Assembly (NCBI GenBank): GCA_963815115.1
Contig: CAWFFN010000005.1
Span: forward strand, 864,001 to 928,000
Reading direction: 5' to 3'
DNA length: 64,000 nucleotides
Origin: an uncultured delta proteobacterium
GTDB lineage: Bacteria; Desulfobacterota; Binatia; DP-6
The translations under genes and the position numbers were made by a program. Shown one piece after another: positions 4,420 to 63,087 of the stretch. The notes beneath the pieces are model-generated. The model was not told where the DNA came from and ran no database searches. It was given only the letters and a program-made list of their open reading frames with translations. The stretch's first letter is position 1; every line of letters begins with the position of its first letter.

Positions 4420-6090
4420 CTAGGAAGGTATGCGAACCGCGGGTGCGCGGCCACGGCGCGCGGGCAGCGGAGGCAAGCGGTCGAACGGCATCGGCGTCGC
4501 GGAGACCCTTCCCCTCACCGTCCGGGCGTCCGGCATCCCACCCGCCGAGGGATGCGCAGCGTCTCGTGGATCCCGCTCCGCGACCCCGTCCCGTTGCGGA
4601 GGGACCGCCTCGGCGAAAGCGTGCCCGCGCCGGCGCGCGTAGGCCCGCAGGTAGAGCCGGGCGTACTCCTGCGCCGCCTGGTCCCAGGAGTGGTCCTGCG
4701 CCATCGCCCGGCGGCGCATCGCATCGACGTGATGCGCCGGACGGTCGTACCACGTCGAGACGGCCCAGCCGATCGTGTCGGCGAGGCTGTCCGGGCGGAG
4801 ATCGTGGAACACGAACCCGGTCCCCGTGCCGCTGCCCTCGTCGTAGTTCGCCACCGTGTCGACGAGACCGCCGGTGGCCCGCACGATGGGCAGCGTCCCG
4901 TAGCGCATGGCTGTAGATCTGGTTCAGGCCGCAGGGCTCGAAGCGCGATGGCATCAGGAAGAAGTCCGCGCCCGCCTCGATGCGATGGGCGCGAGCGTCG
5001 TCGAACGGGAACCAGGCGCAGAACCGATCGCTGTGCGAGCGGGCTCGTGAAGCAAAGAACCGCTCCGCTTCGGGGTCGCCGGACCCGAGCAGGATCAGCT
5101 GGACGTCCCATCCGAGGATCGTGTCGAGCGCGTGGGCGAGGACGTCGACTCCCTTCTGCGGGACGAGGCGGCCGATGAGCGCGAGGATGGGCACCGCGGA
5201 ACGCACCGGCAGGCCGGCCTCCTCCTGCAGCGCCGCCTTGCATCGTGCCTTGCCGGCGAGGTCGTCCGCGGCGAAGTGTGCCGCGAGGTGCGGATCGGTC
5301 GCCGGGTTCCACTCGTCGACGTCGATGCCGTTCAGGATGCCGACGAGATCGTCTCGGTGCTGGGCGAGGACGCCGTCGAGACCGCACCCGTAGTCGGGGG
5401 TCTGGATCTCGCGCGCGTAGGTCGGGCTCACCGTCGTGAGCATGGTGCCGTGGTGGAGCGCGGCCTTCGTGAGGTTCGTCGTGCCGAAGTGCTCGAACTC
5501 GCGGGCATCGTAGTGCTCGGGTCCGAGGCCGGTGATGAAGAACGCCCCGCCGTCGAACACGCCCTGATAGGCGAGGTTGTGGATGGTGTAGACGGTGGCG
5601 CTGCCGTGCAGCGGCTGCGCCCACTCGACCGTGTTGACGTAGACCGGGACGAGCGCCGTCTGCCAGTCGTTGGCATGGATGACGTCGGGGATCAAGCCGA
5701 GCGCCTTCACCAGCTCGAGCGCGCCGCGCGACAGGAAGGCGAAGCGTTCCAGGTTGTCGGGGTAGGCCTCGGGCGGCGGGCCGTAGAGGTGCGGACGATC
5801 GAAGTAGCGGTGATGCTCCAGGAAGTAGATCGGCACCTCGCTACCCGGGAGCCGGCCGAGACGCACCCGGGCGTGCGCCGTCCCGAACCACATGGGCACC
5901 GAGAGGACGCCCTCCAGCAGCTCGAGCTCGGCCACGGCATGCCGGCGTAGAGCGGCATGACCACGCGGACGTCGAGTCCCCGGCGGCGCAGCGCCTTCGG
6001 CAGGGCCCCGATCACGTCGCCGAGCCCGCCCGTCTTGGCGAACGGCGCGCACTCGGGCGTCACGAAGAGGACTTTCAGCGGGGCTGCCAT
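4420..6090 (-). CDS. glgA: Glycogen synthase (GT5); two apparent frameshifts near 5930 and 4910
   Basis: [59 protein letters not shown] spread across three frames. Confidence 0.9.
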
Positions 6091-41163: not shown

Positions 41164-42480
41164 TCAGCTCGTTGCACGGCCTGCCGGTGTGAGGGGATCG
41201 CGAATGCCGTGTCGCTCCATGCGGCGCCACAGCGTGACGCGCGAGATGCCGAGTGCGGCGGCGGCACGCTGCCGGTTCCAGCGATGGTCGTTCAGCACGC
41301 GGAGGATGCGTGCTCGCTCGTCTGGCCAGAAGCTCCCGTCGAGCATCGGCGCGCGCCGCAGCAGCCCGGCGAGATCGTCTCCTTCGGCGGTGGCCAGGAT
41401 GAGCAGGGACTCGAGCGTGTTCTCGAGCTCGCGCACGTTGCCCGGCCACGAGTGATTGAGGAGCGGGCGCAGCGCGGCCGGCGCCGGCACCGCGAAGCGC
41501 GTGCCGTGGCGACGGTTGAAGGCGGCGACGAAGTGGGAGACCAGCAGCGCGAGGTCGGCGCCGCGCTCGCGCAGCGGTGGGAGATGGATGGTCAGCACGC
41601 GCAGCCGGTAGTACAGGTCGCGCCGGAAGGTCCCCGCCTCCACCATGCGCCAGAGCTCCCGGTTGGAGGCGGCGAGGAGACGGACGTTCACCCGGCGAGC
41701 CGCACTGCCCCCGAGCGGGCGCACCTCGCCGTCCTGGACCACGCGGAGCAGCTTCGCCTGGAGAGGAAGCGGCAGATCCTCGATCTCGTCGAGAAAGAGC
41801 GTGCCCCCGTCGGCGAGTCGCAACGCGCCCGGTCGCGACTCGAGCGCGCCCGTGAAGGCCCCCCGCGCGTGGCCGAAGAACTCGCTCTCCGCCAGCGTCT
41901 CGGGAATCGCCGCGCAGTTGACGGGCACGAAGGCCCGCCCGCTCCGGGGGCCGGCGGTGTGGATTGCCCGCGCCACCACCTCCTTGCCGGTGCCGGTCTC
42001 TCCCTCCAGCAGGACCGGTGCCTCGGTTCGCGCAGCGGTGCGCACGAGCGCCCTCACCCGCTCCATCGCGAGACTGGCGCCGATCAGTCCCGCGAGCGGC
42101 TCGTCGCCGGGGGATGCGACCCGTCGCGGCGGGGCGCAGGCTGCCGCCGCACCGACGCGAGCGCCGATCTCGGGTGCGCCCAGCATCAGGTAGTCGGTCG
42201 CGCCGCCCTTGAGCGCGTCGATCGCCGCTTCGGCCCGATCGTGCTCGCCCACGACCACGACCGGCACCGGCGGCGTGCGGCCGCCGACGGCTGCCATCAC
42301 GCGTCCCAGCTCGGCACGACCCGTGGGGCCGAGCACGATCACGTCGGGACGCTCGACGTCGAGGAGCGACCCTGGATCGCGTACGCTCGCGGACGCGCGC
42401 CGGAGGTCGGCGACGTGAGCCCGCAGCGCCTCGCACAGCGTGGCGGCAGATGGTTCGTCGTCGAGGAGCAGCACCCGCAT
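41164..42480 (-). CDS. sigma54-dependent enhancer-binding protein (degenerate receiver, AAA+, Fis HTH)
   Basis: GETGTGKE, GAFTGA, LFLDEI, FRRDLYYRL, WPGNVREL, AAAALGISRVTLWR. Confidence 0.93.
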   Translation of the reverse strand: MRVLLLDDEPSAATLCEALRAHVADLRRASASVRDPGSLLDVERPDVIVLGPTGRAELGRVMAAVGGRTPPVPVVVVGEHDRAEAAIDALKGGATDYLMLGAPEIGARVGAAAACAPPRRVASPGDEPLAGLIGASLAMERVRALVRTAARTEAPVLLEGETGTGKEVVARAIHTAGPRSGRAFVPVNCAAIPETLAESEFFGHARGAFTGALESRPGALRLADGGTLFLDEIEDLPLPLQAKLLRVVQDGEVRPLGGSAARRVNVRLLAASNRELWRMVEAGTFRRDLYYRLRVLTIHLPPLRERGADLALLVSHFVAAFNRRHGTRFAVPAPAALRPLLNHSWPGNVRELENTLESLLILATAEGDDLAGLLRRAPMLDGSFWPDERARILRVLNDHRWNRQRAAAALGISRVTLWRRMERHGIRDPLTPAGRATS

Positions 42481-42567
42481 CGGCCGGACGACCTCCCTGA
42501 AAGGGGCACCCGCGACGCTAGTCAAATGCCGCCACGGAGACAACGACTGCGATCGGAATACGCGGGA

Positions 42568-42812
42568 TCGACCCGAGACTGCGTCTCGGGTCGAGAGGGG
42601 AGGCGAGGGTGGGGCGCTCGGTGGCGTGGGCGAGCGCCGTGCCGCGGCCGGCGAAGCCGGCGCGGCAAACGTGGCACGCGTGCCGTTTCAGCTCCGGGCG
42701 TGCTCCGAAACGTCTGCCGCGGCGGCTTCGCCGCCCGCGGCACGACGTCCGCACCGTAGATCGAGCTTCATTCCCGCTCTGCCTCCCGACCCGAGACGGA
42801 GTCTCGGGTCGG
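42568..42812 (-). repeat. REP/REPIN-like element, copy B (full, two inverted arms)
   Basis: Terminal hairpins 42568-42594 and 42786-42812 (CGACCCGAGAC-N3-GTCTCGGGTCG) plus two internal GCGAAGC-loop hairpins. Confidence 0.9.
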
Positions 42813-51794: not shown

Positions 51795-51899
51795 AGCAAC
51801 CCGCGTGCCGCGAGTATCGGCTCACATTGCCCAAAAGACCGGCGATCTGTCCCGGACCGGGCCTGTTTGGCGGGCGGGGCGCTGCCCAACCGGCAGGCA
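51795..51899 (-). promoter_or_regulatory. sigma54 promoter with NtrC-like upstream boxes for the ATP-grasp operon
   Basis: CGGCACGCGGGTTGCT at 51795-51810; 17-bp GCC-N9-GGC dyads at 51828-51844, 51860-51876, 51883-51899. Confidence 0.75.
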
Positions 51900-54313: not shown

Positions 54314-54790
<477 letters not shown>

Positions 54791-54836: not shown

Positions 54837-54881
54837 GGCGTGCTCGGGAGGGCGGAATGCCTTCCCGGGCACGCGCCGTTT
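54837..54881 (+). terminator. Long GC-rich hairpin after glnB (possible terminator or stabiliser)
   Basis: GCGTGCTCGGGAGGGC-ggaat-GCCTTCCCGGGCACGC followed by only a short TTT. Confidence 0.45.
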
Positions 54882-54901
54882 CGCAGCGTGACGGGCCGCT
54901 C

Positions 54902-55144
54902 ATGAACGGAAGGGACGTGGACATCTCCGGCGTGAACGCCCGCCTGGTGGAGGCGGCGGAGACGGGCGAGACGATCGAGGTCATCCTCGTCGTGCGCGGC
55001 AAGGTGCGTCCGGTCCGGGGCGCCGACCGCCGCCGCTGGCGGATGCGGGTCGACAGCGACCACGTGCTGACGTTCCGCGCCGATGCCGTCGTGGCTGCGA
55101 CGCCGATCCCGAAAGGGGCGGGCCCGGGGACACGCGGCCGGTGA
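54902..55144 (+). CDS. Small hypothetical protein (80 aa)
   Basis: MNGRDVDISGVNARL...; GC3-rich codons and protein-like composition; family not recognised. Confidence 0.55.
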   Translation: MNGRDVDISGVNARLVEAAETGETIEVILVVRGKVRPVRGADRRRWRMRVDSDHVLTFRADAVVAATPIPKGAGPGTRGR

Positions 55145-55163
55145 GCACCACCCGTGGAGCGGG

Positions 55164-55268
55164 TGCTTTCACGGCGAGCAAGCCGATGCCCGTGGAACGA
55201 GCGGTGCTGTCGTCGTCAGGCTCGAAAGGTGCGAGGGGCGAGGGCGTCATCCTGGCACCGCCCTTGCT
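55164..55268 (+). promoter_or_regulatory. Near-consensus sigma54 promoter with paired NtrC-like boxes driving a non-coding region
   Basis: TGGCACCGCCCTTGCT at 55253-55268; TGCT-N9-AGCA at 55164-55180 and TGC-N11-GCG at 55187-55203. Confidence 0.78.
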
Positions 55269-55278
55269 CTGAAGACCC

Positions 55279-55430
55279 GTGTAGTCTTCGGCTGGCCCGG
55301 CAAAGACACACCAGTCCCCCCCTGGTGGCCGGCGCGCGGCAGGCCAAAAAGGCGAGTTAGGCAAACGGGTCCGCATAACCTGTTGGGTCGATGGGCAGCC
55401 TGGCCGCCGCCAGCCGAAGACTACGCGAAA
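55279..55430 (+). ncRNA. Putative sigma54-dependent structured small RNA (family not recognised)
   Basis: Predicted +1 coincides with a 16-bp perfect closing stem (55281-55296/55409-55424); internal hairpins, one with a UCCCCCC loop; no credible ORF. Confidence 0.62.
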
Positions 55431-55598
55431 GCCGACCGGCCCGCGCTGCGGCTTGCGGATTGAGCGGTGCGCTTTCGGCCGCGACCAGCCTGCTCGCGAT
55501 CGAGCCCACGCAGTCCGGGAACACGTGCGTGGGGTCAGGACGACGCGGTCCAGCGCGGTCTTTGAACCCCGGGACGAAAGGGTTAGTCTCGGCCGGTC

Positions 55599-57791
55599 AT
55601 GGCGGAGTCCAACGACCGAGCGAATCTCACCCGCTGGCTGGAGCTCGCCCGCAAGGAGCGCCGCGGAGCGGAGCCGGACGACCTGGTCTGGCAGACGCCC
55701 GAGGGTCTGGCGGTCAAGCCGCTCTACTCGCAGGCGGACGTCGCCGGTCTCGACGTCCTCGACACCGTGCCCGGCGAATTCCCGTTCCTGCGCGGCCCGC
55801 GCGCCACCATGTACGCGGAGAAGCCGTGGACGATCCGCCAGTACGCCGGCTTCTCCACCGCCGAGGAGTCGAACGCCTTCTACCGCGCCAACCTCGCTGC
55901 CGGACAGATGGGCCTGTCGGTCGCCTTCGATCTCGCCACCCATCGCGGCTACGACAGCGATCACCCGCGCGTCGTGGGCGACGTCGGCAAGGCCGGCGTC
56001 GCGATCGACTCCGTCGAGGACATGAAGATCCTCTTCGACGGCGTGCCGCTCGACAAGATGTCCGTGTCGATGACCATGAACGGCGCCGTGCTGCCGGTGC
56101 TGGCGAGCTTCATCGTGGCCGGCGAGGAGCAGGGCGTGCCGCGGGCCAGGCTCACCGGGACCATCCAGAACGACATCCTGAAGGAGTTCATGGTCCGCAA
56201 CACCTACATCTACCCGCCGGCACCCTCGATGCGGATCGCGGCCGACATCATCGAGTACACGTCGAAGGAGATGCCGCGCTTCAACTCGATCTCGATCTCG
56301 GGCTACCACATGCAGGAGGCCGGGGCGACGTGCGATCTCGAGCTGGCGTTCACCATTGCGGACGGGCTCGAGTACGTGCGCGCCGCGCTCTCGAAAGGGC
56401 TCGACATCGACGCCTTCGCGGGGCGCCTGTCGTTCTTCTTCGCCATCGGGATGAGCTTCTACATGGAGGTGGCGAAGCTGCGCGCGGCGCGTCTCCTGTG
56501 GGCCACGCTGATGAGGAAGCACTTCGGGCCCAAGCAGGCGGCCTCGCTGATGCTCCGGACGCACTGCCAGACCTCGGGCGCGAGCCTCACCGAGCAGGAC
56601 CCCTTCAACAACATCGTCCGCACCACCATCGAGGCCATGGCCGCCGTCTTCGGCGGCACCCAGAGCCTGCACACGAACTCCTTCGACGAGGCCATCGCGC
56701 TGCCGACCGACGCCTCGGCACGCGTCGCCCGCAACACCCAGCTCATCCTCCAGCTCGAGACCGGGATCCCGAAGGTGATCGACCCCTGGGGCGGCTCGTA
56801 CTTCATGGAGGCTCTGACCCACGCGCTCGCGGCGAAGGCGCTCACCATCATCGACGAGGTCGAGCAGCTCGGCGGCATGACCAAGGCGATAGAGGCCGGC
56901 ATGCCGAAGCTGCGCATCGAGGAGGCTGCCGCCCGCCGTCAGGCGCGCGTCGACCGGGGCGAGGACGTGATCGTCGGCGTGAACAAGTTCAAGCTGGCGG
57001 AGGAGCCCGAGATCGACACGCGCGAGATCGACAACACGGCGGTGCGCGAGGCGCAGGTACGCGGTCTCGAGCGCATCCGCGCCACCCGCGACGCGGGCAA
57101 GGTCCGTGACACGCTGGCGGCACTCGTGCGCTGCGCGGAGACGGGGGAGGGAAACCTCCTCGGGTTCGCGGTCGAAGCGGCGCGGGCGCGGGCGACGATC
57201 GGCGAGATCTCGGACGCCCTCGAGAGCGTCTGGGGCCGCTTCCAGGCCCAGATCCGGTCGATCTCCGGGGTCTACGGCGGGCACTTCGCGGACGACGCCG
57301 ACTGGAAGGCAATGCGCGAGGAGATCGACCGCTTCGTACACGATCAGGGCCGGCGGCCGCGACTCCTCGTGGCGAAGGTGGGCCAGGACGGGCACGATCG
57401 CGGCGCCAAGGTGATCGCGACCGCCTTTGCCGACCTCGGGTTCGACGTGGACGTCGGCACGCTCTTCCAGACGCCCGAGGAGGTGGCACGCCAGGCGGTC
57501 GAGAACGACGTGCACGTGGTCGGCATCTCGACCCAGTCGGGCGGCCACAAGACGCTCGTGCCGCAGCTCGTCCGCGAGCTCGAGCGCCTCGGCGCCGGGG
57601 ACATCGTGGTCACGGTCGGCGGCATCATCCCGGCGAAGGACTACCGGATGCTCGAGCAGGCGGGCGTCAAGGCGGTCTTCGGCCCGGGCACGAACGTGCC
57701 GAAGGCGGCGCGCCGCGTGCTCGAGCTGATCAAGGTTCCGACCCGAGACTTCGTCTCGGGTCGGACGGGGAGCGAGCGTGCGACGTCTTGA
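55599..57791 (+). CDS. scpA: Methylmalonyl-CoA mutase (fused catalytic and B12-binding domains)
   Basis: [49 protein letters not shown]; C-terminal tail from repeat copy C. Confidence 0.96.
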
Positions 57792-60035: not shown

Positions 60036-62072
60036 CACGCGAAGCGCACCTGCTCTACGACGCCGACGGCAAGCCCACGCACGATGCGCCGTGGATCTTC
60101 CGCACCTACGCCGGGCACACCAACGTCGCAGGAGTCGAACGCGCTCTACCGGGCGAATCTCTCCCGCGGCCAGACCGGCCTCTCGATCGCCTTCGACCTG
60201 CCCACCCAGTGCGGCTACAGCTCCGACCATCCGCTGGCGGTGCCGGAGATCGGCAAGGTGGGCGTTCCCGTCAACACGCTCGACGACTTCGCGCTGCTCT
60301 TCGACGGCATTCCCGTCGACGAGATCAACACCTCGATGACGATCAACGCGACCGCGATGTGGCTGCTGGCGCTCTACGTCGCCCTCGCCGAGCAGCGCGG
60401 CGTCGACCCGGCGCGGCTCCAGGGCACGACGCAGAACGACATCGTGAAGGAGTACCTGGCGCGCGGCACCTACATCTTCCCGCCGCGCGAGTCCGTCCGC
60501 CTCATCGTCGACATGTACGAGCACTGCCTGCACCACGTCCCGCGCTGGAACGCGTCGAACATCTGCTCGTACCACCTGCAGGAGGCGGGCGCGACGCCGA
60601 CGCAGGAGCTGGCCTTCGCGCTCGCCACCGCCATGGCCGTGCTCGACGCCGTGCGCGCGCGCGGCGGCTTCAGCGGCGACGACTTCGAGCGCTGCGTCGG
60701 GCGCGTGTCCTTCTTCGTCAACGCCGGCATCCGCTTCGTCGAGGAGATGTGCAAGCTGCGCGCCTTCGCCGAGATGTGGGACGAGATCACGCGCGACCGG
60801 TACGGCGTGACGAATCCGAAGTACCGGCTCTTCCGCTACGGCGTGCAGGTGAACTCCCTCGGCCTCACCGAGGAGCAGCCCGAGAACAACGCCTGGCGCA
60901 TCCTCATCGAGGCGCTCGGGGTCACGCTCAGCCGCACCGCCCGCTGCCGGGCGCTCCAGCTGCCGACGTGGAACGAGGCGCTCAGCCTGCCGCGGCCCTG
61001 GGACCAGCAGTGGTCGCTGCGCCTCCAGCAGATCCTGGCCTACGAGACCGACCTGCTCGAGTATCCCGACCTGTTCGACGGCTCGCCCGTGGTGGCGTCC
61101 AAGGTCGCGGCGCTCAAGGCGGCCGCCTACACGGAGATCGCGACCATCGAGGAGCTGGGCGGCGCCATCGAGGCGATCGAGTCGGGCTATCTGAAGGCGG
61201 CGCTGGTTCGCAGCCAGGCGCAGCGGATGGCGCGCATCAATGCGGGCGACGCGGTGGTCGTCGGCCGCAACCGCTGGACCGAGGGCCTGCCGTCGCCGCT
61301 GCTCTCGGGCGAGGACGGAGGACTCTTCCGGGTCGACCCCGGGTCCGCCGCCCAGACGCTCGAGATGCTGCGCGCCACCCGCAGCCGGCGCAGCCAGGCG
61401 GCGGTGGACGACGCGCTTCGCCGCCTGCGTGACGACGCGGTCGCGGGCAAGAATCTCATGCCGGCGTCCATCACCTGCGCGAAGGCGCGGGTCGCGACCG
61501 GCGAATGGGCGGACGTGCTGCGGCAGATCTTCGGCGAGTACCGGCCGGCGACGGGAATCGACGGCCAGCAGCTCGGCCTCGAGAACGCCCGGGTCGCCGC
61601 GGTGCGCGCCCGGGTCGCCGCCTGGACGGCGGGGCACGGGACGCGGCCGCGCATCGTCGTCGGCAAGGCCGGGCTCGACGGCCACTCGAACGGCTCGGAG
61701 ATGATCGCGGTCGCCGCCAAGCACGCCGGCTTCGACGTGGTCTACGGCGGCATCCGCATGACGCCCGAGGAGATCGTCCAGTCGGCCGTCGAGGAGGATG
61801 CCTCCGTGCTCGGCCTCTCCGTCCTCTCCGGGTCGCATCTCGAGATCGCGCGCATGGTGCTCGAGGCGCTCGAGCGACAGGGAGCGCGCGAAGCCATCCC
61901 CGTCGTCCTCGGCGGCATCGTGCCGGATGCGGACGTCGAGCCGCTCGGGCGCCTCGGCGTCAAGGCGGTCTTCACGCCCCGCGACTTCGACCTGATGGCC
62001 GTGATGGACCGCATCCTCGACGTCATCGGTGCGCCCCGCGATGAGCCCGAGGCACGCGTCGCCAGCGCGTGA
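60032..62072 (+). CDS. ecm: Ethylmalonyl-CoA mutase-like (Ecm/MeaA) B12 enzyme; frameshift near 60128
   Basis: PWIFRTYAGH, GQTGLSIAFDLPTQ, QNDIVKEYLARGT, NICSYHLQE, GLDGHSNG (Ecm/MeaA-type signatures). Confidence 0.85.
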
Positions 62073-63087
62073 GCCGGCGAGGCGTGGCGGCGCGCCCCCG
62101 GCGCTCGATGCCGGCGTGCGGGCGTTGCTCGAGCGCGCGGCACGGCTCGAGAAGCACCCGCTCGCGCGTCTGATCACGCTGGTCGAGCAGGAGCACGACG
62201 CCGGTCGCGCCGGGCGTGCCGCGCTGTTCCGCCACCTGGCGGCCCATGCCGACGCCTACCCGCTCCGCGCCCGCGTGATCGGCATCACCGGAACGCCGGG
62301 GTCGGGAAAGTCGACGCTGATCGGGCGGATCGCCCTCGAGCTGCTGCACGATGACCCGAGCGCGCGCGTCGCGGTGCTGGCGATCGATCCCTCGAGCGCC
62401 GAGTCGGGCGGGGCGCTCCTCGGCGACCGCGTGCGCACGCATTTTCCCGTCGGGGAGCGCCGCATCTTCTTTCGCTCCCAGGCGACCGACGGCGATCTCG
62501 GCGGCGTCGGGCGCCGCACCTTCGCGGTCACGCGTCTCCTGCGTCACCTCTTCGATTTCGTCTTCGTGGAGACGGTCGGCATCGGGCAGAGCGAGATCGA
62601 GGTCACGGCGCTCGCCGATCTGACGGCGCTCGTCCTGCAGCCGCTCGCGGGCGACCATGTCCAGTTCCTGAAGGCGGGCGTGATGGAGGTGCCCGACGTG
62701 TTCGTCATCAACAAGTGCGACGAGGCCGCGCTGGCTCGGCGGAGCCTGCACGAGCTGCGCTCGGCGCTCGACACGGCCCGCGTCGGCCGCGAGGCCCATC
62801 CCATCTTCAAGACGAGCGCACTGCGCGGAACCGGGATCGCGGAGCTGGCCGCCTTCCTGCGCCGGACGGTGCAGCCACCCGACGCGACGTCCCTGCGGCG
62901 CCGCGAGCGCCACTTCCTCGCCCGGGCGGTGGCGGGACGTTACGGCCGCTTCGGTGTGGAGGAGCTCGAGCGGGTGATGGCGGCGTGGCCCGCCGAGCGT
63001 GCCAGGCGGGCCTCCTACGAGGAGCTCGAGGACGCCGCGCTGGAGGAGATCCGCGGCCGCATCCGGCCGCGCGAGGCGGGGGCGTAG
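62041..63087 (+). CDS. Second, divergent MeaB/ArgK-family GTPase
   Basis: ARLITLVE, GITGTPGSGKST, AIDPSS, LLGDRVR, ETVGIGQSE, NKCD. Confidence 0.88.
   Translation: MSPRHASPAREPARRGGAPPALDAGVRALLERAARLEKHPLARLITLVEQEHDAGRAGRAALFRHLAAHADAYPLRARVIGITGTPGSGKSTLIGRIALELLHDDPSARVAVLAIDPSSAESGGALLGDRVRTHFPVGERRIFFRSQATDGDLGGVGRRTFAVTRLLRHLFDFVFVETVGIGQSEIEVTALADLTALVLQPLAGDHVQFLKAGVMEVPDVFVINKCDEAALARRSLHELRSALDTARVGREAHPIFKTSALRGTGIAELAAFLRRTVQPPDATSLRRRERHFLARAVAGRYGRFGVEELERVMAAWPAERARRASYEELEDAALEEIRGRIRPREAGA

Follow-up and report, generated by a model that had tools for sequence, protein, structure and literature searches.

The stretch of DNA analysed here (hereafter the window) comprises 64,000 nt of the forward strand of contig CAWFFN010000005.1 (positions 864,001-928,000; assembly GCA_963815115.1), part of the 6.9-Mb genome of an uncultured member of Candidatus Binatia, which we refer to as G000. 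In this window, a gap extends from the stop codon of a 95-amino-acid (aa) open reading frame (ORF; 54857-55144, + strand) to the start of scpA at 55599, and comparison with related genomes indicates that the element in this gap is a genuine RNA gene, conserved and structured, that has a sigma-54 promoter and constitutes a new family of a kind known in other bacteria. An earlier note, made from the letters of the window alone, had placed a candidate nitrogen-regulated small RNA (sRNA) next to glnB. Even though glnB, encoding a P-II protein, does lie nearby (54452-54790), the immediate upstream neighbour of the element is the 95-aa ORF, glnB being located one gene beyond it. The same ORF limits the statement that no credible ORF is present, which holds for the RNA itself, whereas the gap is bordered by a conserved reading frame. 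The interpretation that we favour, to which we assign a probability of about 0.6, is that of an independent, sigma-54/NtrC-driven gene for a base-pairing RNA of ~150 nt, the 'Binatia sigma-54 sRNA'.

Fold, distribution and independence of the RNA

The predicted RNA of ~148 nt would occupy positions 55279-55426 of the + strand, with its start deduced from the -12 element of the promoter and its 3' end taken as the end of the closing stem P1. According to the RNAalifold consensus of eight close sequences, P1, the terminal stem, comprises 18-19 bp, the P2 hairpin is capped by a UCCCCCC loop, and the P3 stem bears an extension ending in a further hairpin, P4. The 5' arm of P1 (55279-55296) pairs with the 3' arm (55409-55426), an assignment based on this consensus and on pair counts, and it includes the perfect inverted repeat of 16 bp (55281-55296 / 55409-55424) that the earlier note had described. 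P2 (55297-55332) is built from a CCGGC/GCCGG base (55297-55301 / 55328-55332), an internal loop AAAGACA, and an upper stem CACCAG/CUGGUG, which carries the apical loop UCCCCCC (55315-55321), unpaired in the minimum free energy (MFE) fold and a candidate anti-Shine-Dalgarno seed. P3 is formed by the arms GCGGCAGG (55336-55343) and CCUGGCCGC (55399-55407), placed by RNAalifold and pair counts, and the P4 hairpin AACGGGU-CCGCAUA-ACCUGUU (55364-55384) presents a second conserved pyrimidine-rich loop, whose UCCGCA motif is retained even in the divergent copies of G010 and G014. Just 3' of P1, an AA dinucleotide (55428-55429; alignment columns A154 and A155) is invariant in 8/8 long-form sequences. 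All these features lie on the + strand. The multi-branched fold with its inner hairpins had been recognised at these same positions in the earlier note, and it has turned out to be both conserved and covarying in related genomes.

The MFE calculated for the core (55279-55426) is -80 kcal/mol (z -4.48), none of 200 shuffles being as stable. Among the eight close homologues, 9 of the 52 predicted pairs show compensatory changes. With 16 genomic sequences, 95.2% of the cells are paired and 20/52 pairs have changed on both sides, compared with at most seven double changes in six slid registers and with 0/500 shuffles reaching the observed value. When metagenomes are included (59 matches, 49 of them distinct), 94.2% are paired and compensatory changes affect 27/48 pairs, the slid controls giving nine at most, and again no shuffle out of 500 reaches this level. 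The alignments used for the latter two pair counts were fitted to a covariance model, which biases them in favour of the structure; considering how large the effect is and how the slid controls behave, we nevertheless regard the fold as convincing. The changes are unevenly spread over the 49 distinct sequences. Outer P1 (helix 1) has compensatory changes in 8 of its 11 pairs, the upper stem of P2 covaries (one pair being CG in 19 sequences and GC in 17), and P3 (helix 5), paired in 99.7%, has 4/8 compensatory pairs, one of them GC in 25 and UA in 24. Inner P1 (CGGCUGGC/GCCAGCCG), by contrast with outer P1, is invariant in 5/8 of its pairs, and hardly any variation is seen in the P2 base and most of P3. 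As for the strand, the covariance model scores 173.9 bits on + versus 34.1 on -, and relatives contain G-U pairs in P1 on the + strand only, which would be C-A mismatches on the other one; the + strand is thus the RNA strand.

Another way of accounting for this locus would be a feature acting at the level of DNA, such as the end of a mobile element, a recombination or protein-binding site, or a terminator of glnB and the 95-aa ORF. The perfect inverted repeat would fit such a feature, as would the good folding of the minus strand of the core (z -3.13) and the case of G014, where the element directly follows the 95-aa ORF and has no promoter of its own. However, no T-run follows the stem, the promoter is kept at a fixed distance, the element is single-copy, and the G-U pairs of the + strand, like the compensatory changes, are signs of selection acting on an RNA, all of which makes a DNA-level feature extremely improbable. 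A miniature inverted-repeat transposable element or another repeat is rejected: at 0-1 mismatch, the 16-mer and its complement occur only at this locus in the whole genome, all other matches having two mismatches, and the 241-nt element is likewise present once.

Other structures read in the gap do not belong to the element. The letters of a CGAAAGC/GCTTTCG hairpin are indeed found at 55426-55432 / 55472-55478, as noted earlier, but this hairpin (55426-55477) was discarded both as a part of the RNA and as a terminator, since the region 55420-55480 has a z of +0.30, with 123/200 shuffles as stable, and it is not conserved in relatives, where the gap to scpA is ~90 nt shorter. A small ORF within the RNA (ATG at 55391, 12 codons) was also rejected, its ATG lying within a helix and having no ribosome-binding site; the frame ends at TAA in G001, G003, G006, G018, and G023, and this stop is absent in G000, G002, and G005.

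The earlier note could not assign the RNA to any family, and comparison with Rfam 15 leads to the same result. There are no matches at gathering thresholds in the whole window, and the E-value mode applied to 55050-55650 returned only two chance-level matches, with 15.2 and 12.2 bits versus thresholds of 45 and 46.7, one of which merely fits the letters of the promoter. The known families covered by this comparison (6S RNA, riboswitches, the glnA/glutamine riboswitch, and known sRNAs among them) were rejected.

A DNA search of 40 relatives recovered the region in eight of them (9/41 including this genome), the best-conserved block, with 76-87% identity, being delimited by the promoter (55254) on one side and the end of the closing stem on the other (55424). 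In the alignment of these relatives, the conserved sequence starts with two upstream dyads, fixed only at their TGC and GC(A) ends; it sets in again at the -24/-12 element, covers the fold, and breaks off immediately past the 3' arm of P1. A first covariance model, built from eight sequences, detected the RNA in 16/25 genomes of the same family (metagenome-assembled genomes of Candidatus Binatia), representing 8 of 14 genera. Under stricter filters, a second model found it in 10/17 family members, not counting this genome, and in none of 133 genomes from 18 other families of the class, while a phylum-wide sample of 151 genomes produced matches only in this genome and in the one other family member included. 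A pattern scan of metagenomes added 42 contigs from soil or sediment, all 42 of them matched by the model. Comparison thus shows the RNA to be restricted to one family. No divergent RNA was seen after the 95-aa ORF in three model-negative genomes (G017, G007, and G012), nor at the loci of this ORF in G008 and G020. One metagenome contig, L121, bears two copies (1526-1680, - strand, and 5157-5303, + strand), both with small indels, which may be assembly errors or a real duplication. No paper dealing with Binatia and small RNA was returned by a full-text literature search, whose reach excluded supplementary files, and apparently no regulatory RNA has been described so far for Candidatus Binatia. 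Strongly supported by comparison through its promoter, enhancer sites, covarying fold, and occurrence across the family, the RNA could serve as an entry in RNA-family databases and for the annotation of soil and peat metagenomes.

The position of scpA raises the question of whether the structure might be a cis-acting leader or attenuator, with the sigma-54 promoter driving the scpA-meaB genes (methylmalonyl-CoA mutase). This would be consistent with the start of scpA only 58-85 nt past the element in 6/8 close relatives, and with the lack of a canonical terminator after P1 on the + strand in the class of RNA to which this genome belongs. However, the flanking genes are different in G021, G008, G020, G024, and G016, so that no downstream gene is constant in the family; genes following the RNA are convergent in G020 and in contigs L109, L131, and L137; and in G005 and G018 the RNA and scpA are ~1.3 kb apart, with a monooxygenase-like gene on the opposite strand between them. 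Conservation also ends with P1, and scpA appears to have its own promoter, as the earlier note had suggested from the TAGTCT at 55584-55589: TTGAAC-N16-TAGTCT (55562-55589), whose -35 and -10 elements are conserved in relatives, ends 9 nt ahead of the ATG (55599), which suggests a leaderless scpA mRNA. Finally, in a second class of copies of 145 nt, P1 is directly followed by a hairpin and U5-U7. With flanks that vary from genus to genus and in some cases a convergent gene, the RNA is not the leader of scpA, a role that we consider very improbable, and the comparison shows the RNA gene to be independent of its neighbours. In the 145-nt class (L123:326-385, L128:4845-4900, and similar contigs), the hairpin shares bases with the 3' arm of P1, and together with the U5-U7 it could be an intrinsic terminator competing with lower P1.

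The neighbouring genes deserve a few observations of their own. The conserved 95-aa ORF, which has no Pfam or NCBIfam match, separates the RNA from glnB, or from amtB in genus g2. Of 11 family genomes searched, nine contain it, as does one genome from a different family, and some of the carriers lack the RNA. A few kb past scpA-meaB, at 60036-63087 (+ strand), there is one more gene each for a methylmalonyl-CoA-mutase-like protein and a MeaB-like GTPase.

Sigma-54 promoter, upstream dyads and probable activator

The promoter preceding the RNA is TGGCACCGCCCTTGCT (55253-55268, + strand), an exact match to the -24/-12 consensus TGGCAC-N5-TTGCW that had already been read at this place in the earlier note. 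The exact consensus occurs once in the window, and matches with at most one mismatch occur three times, compared with 0.79 expected, a number reached by 4 of 100 shuffles. The arrangement is also conserved: YGG-N8-TTGCW (GG-N10-GC) is found 21-28 nt ahead of the conserved CGGCU of P1 in 16/17 genomic copies, and the same element in 39 of the 40 metagenome copies having at least 45 nt of upstream sequence. From the position of the -12 GC (55266-55267), transcription is predicted to start at ~55279, the first base of P1. A search for sequencing runs containing the locus returned no RNA run, and the four runs compared with the window are contigs, probably DNA, that match parts of it. The genome encodes one rpoN (208 bits on PF04552) and contains 77 strong sigma-54 promoter matches versus 32 in reversed-sequence controls.

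Two putative upstream activator sites, both on the + strand and both found exactly where the earlier note had proposed them, precede this promoter. The first, TGCTTTCACGGCGAGCA (55164-55180), is a 17-bp TGC-N11-GCA dyad centred at about -107 from the predicted start; the second, TGCCCGTGGAACGAGCG (55187-55203), is of the TGC-N11-GCG type and follows 23 bp after the first. The TGC and GCA columns of site 1 are invariant across nine relatives. Measured from the model start, this site lies at -110 to -113 in ten genomic copies, being present also in long-class metagenome copies, and site 2 lies at -87 to -90 in most long-form copies. Nearly all long copies thus have dyads at about -111 and -88, the corresponding positions in the 145-nt class being -100 and -78. 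At least one dyad is present in 30 of 33 distinct metagenome copies, and two of the three exceptions have less than 45 nt of upstream sequence.

Dyads of this type are not exclusive to the RNA gene. Within -160 to -30 of the 77 strong sigma-54 promoters, ten strict dyads (TGCY-N9-RGCA) were found versus 0.63 expected from genome density, distributed over eight promoters. These include those of the amtB-glnK-glnA operon (C12, two dyads) and of a second amtB (C9, two dyads), as well as those of genes encoding circularly permuted ATP-grasp, transglutaminase-like, patatin-like, and porin-like proteins. The promoter of amtB-glnK-glnA and its two TGC-N11-GCA dyads are found at G000 C12:380911-382370, and a sigma-54 promoter precedes 13/14 amtB orthologues of the family. 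Because the same layout of dyads and sigma-54 element precedes amtB-glnK-glnA and the second amtB, textbook targets of NtrC, the activator of the RNA gene is likely to be NtrC. A full-length gene pair resembling ntrB (PAS-HisKA-HATPase) and ntrC (REC-AAA-HTH_8; C7:258506-259885) is present in the genome. In genus g1 the RNA gene itself is located beside glnB, and in genus g2 beside amtB. On this comparative basis, the RNA is very probably nitrogen-regulated.

Several results weigh against this interpretation or soften it. The best NtrC candidate reaches 536 bits on TIGR01818, below the curated cut-off of 558.6, and it is one among ~40 enhancer-binding proteins in a genome with 49 matches to the sigma-54 activator domain (PF00158). 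Downstream control windows held three dyads, more than expected from genome density. Local alignment of the enhancers of the RNA gene and of amtB scores only modestly above shuffles: compared with the shuffle maximum, the values are 26 vs 26 in G008, 22 vs 28 in G020, and 19 vs 23 in G000, with no signal in four other genomes. To these points we must add the G014 copy, where no promoter precedes the RNA. Most of them would fit a situation in which the RNA gene and its sigma-54 promoter are as described, but the activator is another of the ~40 enhancer-binding proteins, responding to a signal other than nitrogen; the ATP-grasp, transglutaminase-like, patatin-like, and porin-like members of the dyad regulon, whose link to nitrogen is unclear, would fit it as well. 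The dyads shared with both amtB promoters, the location beside glnB or amtB, and the ntrB/ntrC-like pair speak against such an activator, which we consider unlikely, and we retain NtrC as the preferred one.

Within the window, a sigma-54 promoter, CGGCACGCGGGTTGCT (51795-51810, - strand), precedes the circularly permuted ATP-grasp gene, and a TGCCTGCCGGTTGGGCA dyad lies near 51883-51899 (- strand), at the same -89 offset as site 1 of the sRNA; this gene likely belongs to the same regulon as the sRNA. A gene for a sigma-54 enhancer-binding protein is found at 41164-42687 (- strand), 13 kb upstream of the RNA, and none of the best NCBIfam matches of its product (NifA, NorR, RtcR, and NtrC types) comes close to its cut-off.

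C-rich loops, junction core and candidate targets

On the basis of these features, we propose the following mechanism for the Binatia sigma-54 sRNA. Sigma-54 RNA polymerase would bind to the -24/-12 element (55253-55268), and an NtrC-type enhancer-binding protein would activate it from the two TGC-N11-GC dyads ~85-110 bp upstream; under this type of activation, the RNA would be made when fixed nitrogen is scarce, along with amtB, glnK, and glnA. The transcript would begin at ~55279 and fold at once into the long P1, closing a three-way junction in which the P2 arm presents the UCCCCCC loop and the P3/P4 arm a UCCGCAUA loop. Its most likely action would be in trans and without Hfq, the exposed C-rich loops pairing with the G-rich Shine-Dalgarno regions of target mRNAs and altering their translation or stability.

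The proposed role of the loops comes from their persistence. In the MFE folds of 49 distinct family members, an apical loop contains CCCC, UCCC, or CCCU in 32, and UCCUC in seven more (39/49 in total). This C-rich loop sits on P2 in the class of this genome and on P4 (UCCCC or UCCUC) in the 145-nt class, and since it shifts between arms, selection seems to act on having a C-rich loop rather than on its place. Their sequences complement ribosome-binding sites of the G-rich or GGAGG type. In this genome, which is 100% complete, no Hfq or CsrA was detected, and the RNA carries no U-tail.

In G000, several dozen putative genes have a G7-G8 run at the Shine-Dalgarno position, among them several encoding secreted proteins and the amtB of the amtB-glnK-glnA operon (AAGGGGGGGGAAGACCUAUG; C12), whose ribosome-binding site consists of eight G complementary to the C-loop of the sRNA. 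Four sites are perfectly complementary, over 10-13 nt, to the loop extended by its 3' flank. A duplex ranking of the 12-nt loop seed against 3,882 gene starts, a crude set that makes the ranking rough and no more than a lead, gave as top matches secreted proteins with CAGGGGGGGA-type ribosome sites; amtB (C12) has no rank, because the start-picking rule left its start out. The G-run is kept at amtB in relatives, and that of a 1139-aa secreted beta-propeller protein is kept as G5-G7 in five relatives. With regard to the genome as a whole, 390 runs of at least seven G are present, and ~45 candidates, some of them spurious or duplicated, lie 2-14 nt before a putative start codon (for example C8:130191, C8:451631, C7:1138657, and C9:654072). 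Many of the genes concerned encode secreted, often Cys-rich or beta-propeller proteins of large paralogous families.

These candidate targets are counterbalanced by other observations. The CA...A flanks of G7 runs are only twofold enriched (15 vs 7.5 expected), and the G-run of a radical SAM candidate target is not conserved in five relatives. The G-run Shine-Dalgarno of amtB also occurs in two genomes in which no sRNA was detected, G012 and G013; the idea that this G-run tracks the presence of the sRNA was dropped as not discriminating, and the targets remain guesses for this reason. The absence of a U-tract terminator after P1 in the class of this genome would, in addition, make read-through toward scpA possible. 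Lastly, five reduced copies of 94-115 nt (two in G016 and one each in G008, G020, and G024) lack a C-rich loop while retaining the junction core and the sigma-54 promoter, so that the conserved core may do something other than anti-Shine-Dalgarno pairing.

This last possibility leads to a different view of the molecule, that of a protein- or ligand-binding RNA, in which the invariant three-way junction (inner P1, the P2 base, and P3) would sequester or sense a factor and the C-loops would be accessory. The near invariance of these elements, helical as they are, would be explained in this way, and the reduced copies keep exactly this core with its promoter. However, the C-rich loops persist in 39/49 sequences even when moved between arms, which points to selection on the loops themselves; the variable gene neighbourhood indicates no partner; there is no match to Rfam riboswitches or protein-binding RNAs; and neither Hfq nor CsrA was found as a protein to be sequestered. 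We thus consider a binding RNA improbable. Slightly less probable still would be a more specific version, where the junction would be dedicated to binding a protein or a metabolite that belongs to the nitrogen-status network and the RNA would not be mainly an antisense regulator; if true, this would represent a sigma-54-driven sequestering or sensing RNA in a lineage without detected Hfq or CsrA. Base pairing through the C-rich loops therefore remains the mode of action that we prefer for the Binatia sigma-54 sRNA.

Comparison with known regulatory RNAs

RsaE/RoxS and other sRNAs with C-rich loops from Firmicutes expose unpaired C-rich loops complementary to the Shine-Dalgarno sequence and do not strictly need Hfq. 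Their likeness to the Binatia RNA lies in the presumed mode of action only and does not imply membership, given that the Binatia RNA has no Rfam match, is preceded by a sigma-54 promoter, and differs in architecture and phylum.

Other systems share the connection to nitrogen. GlnZ from Enterobacteriaceae is reported to be an NtrC-controlled riboregulator processed from the 3' untranslated region (UTR) of the glnA mRNA (PMC9731577; bioRxiv 10.1101/2022.04.01.486790). It links nitrogen limitation to post-transcriptional control, as proposed here for the Binatia RNA; contrary to GlnZ, the latter has its own promoter in 55/57 examinable copies, and only the G014 copy could be 3' UTR-like. NfiS and NfiR from Pseudomonas stutzeri are reported to be non-coding RNAs tied to the NtrC/RpoN nitrogen network and to the control of nitrogenase mRNA (PMC6606865). 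The likeness resides in the nitrogen-network link, with no homology to the Binatia RNA. NcS25 from Burkholderia was also considered as a sigma-54 sRNA analogue and dropped, since its paper reports no sigma-54 motif upstream of ncS25.

The closest functional analogue would be NrsZ from Pseudomonas aeruginosa. NrsZ is reported to be an intergenic sRNA with a consensus RpoN promoter, induced by nitrogen limitation via NtrB/C and RpoN; it consists of tandem repeated stem-loops with a ACAGGCAG loop, a conserved motif through which it acts, is processed to units of ~40 nt, and is thought to open the self-inhibitory 5' UTR of rhlA (Wenner et al. 2014, PMC4253122). Both RNAs have an RpoN promoter of the TGGCAC-N5-TTGCW type, adjoin a gene of nitrogen regulation (ntrC in the case of NrsZ), and display a loop motif on stem-loops. 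Whereas NrsZ is made of repeated units, the Binatia RNA is a single three-way junction with an 18-bp closing stem and C-rich loops, belongs to another phylum, and has no relation in sequence or structure to NrsZ; the ACAGGCAG motif is absent from 55279-55426. Taken together, the amtB-glnK-glnA operon, the second amtB, the ATP-grasp and transglutaminase-like genes, and the RNA would offer a first view of the nitrogen-stress regulon of Binatia, and the pattern of a sigma-54/NtrC-driven sRNA, known from Pseudomonas, would be extended to a distant and uncultivated lineage in which neither Hfq nor CsrA has been detected.

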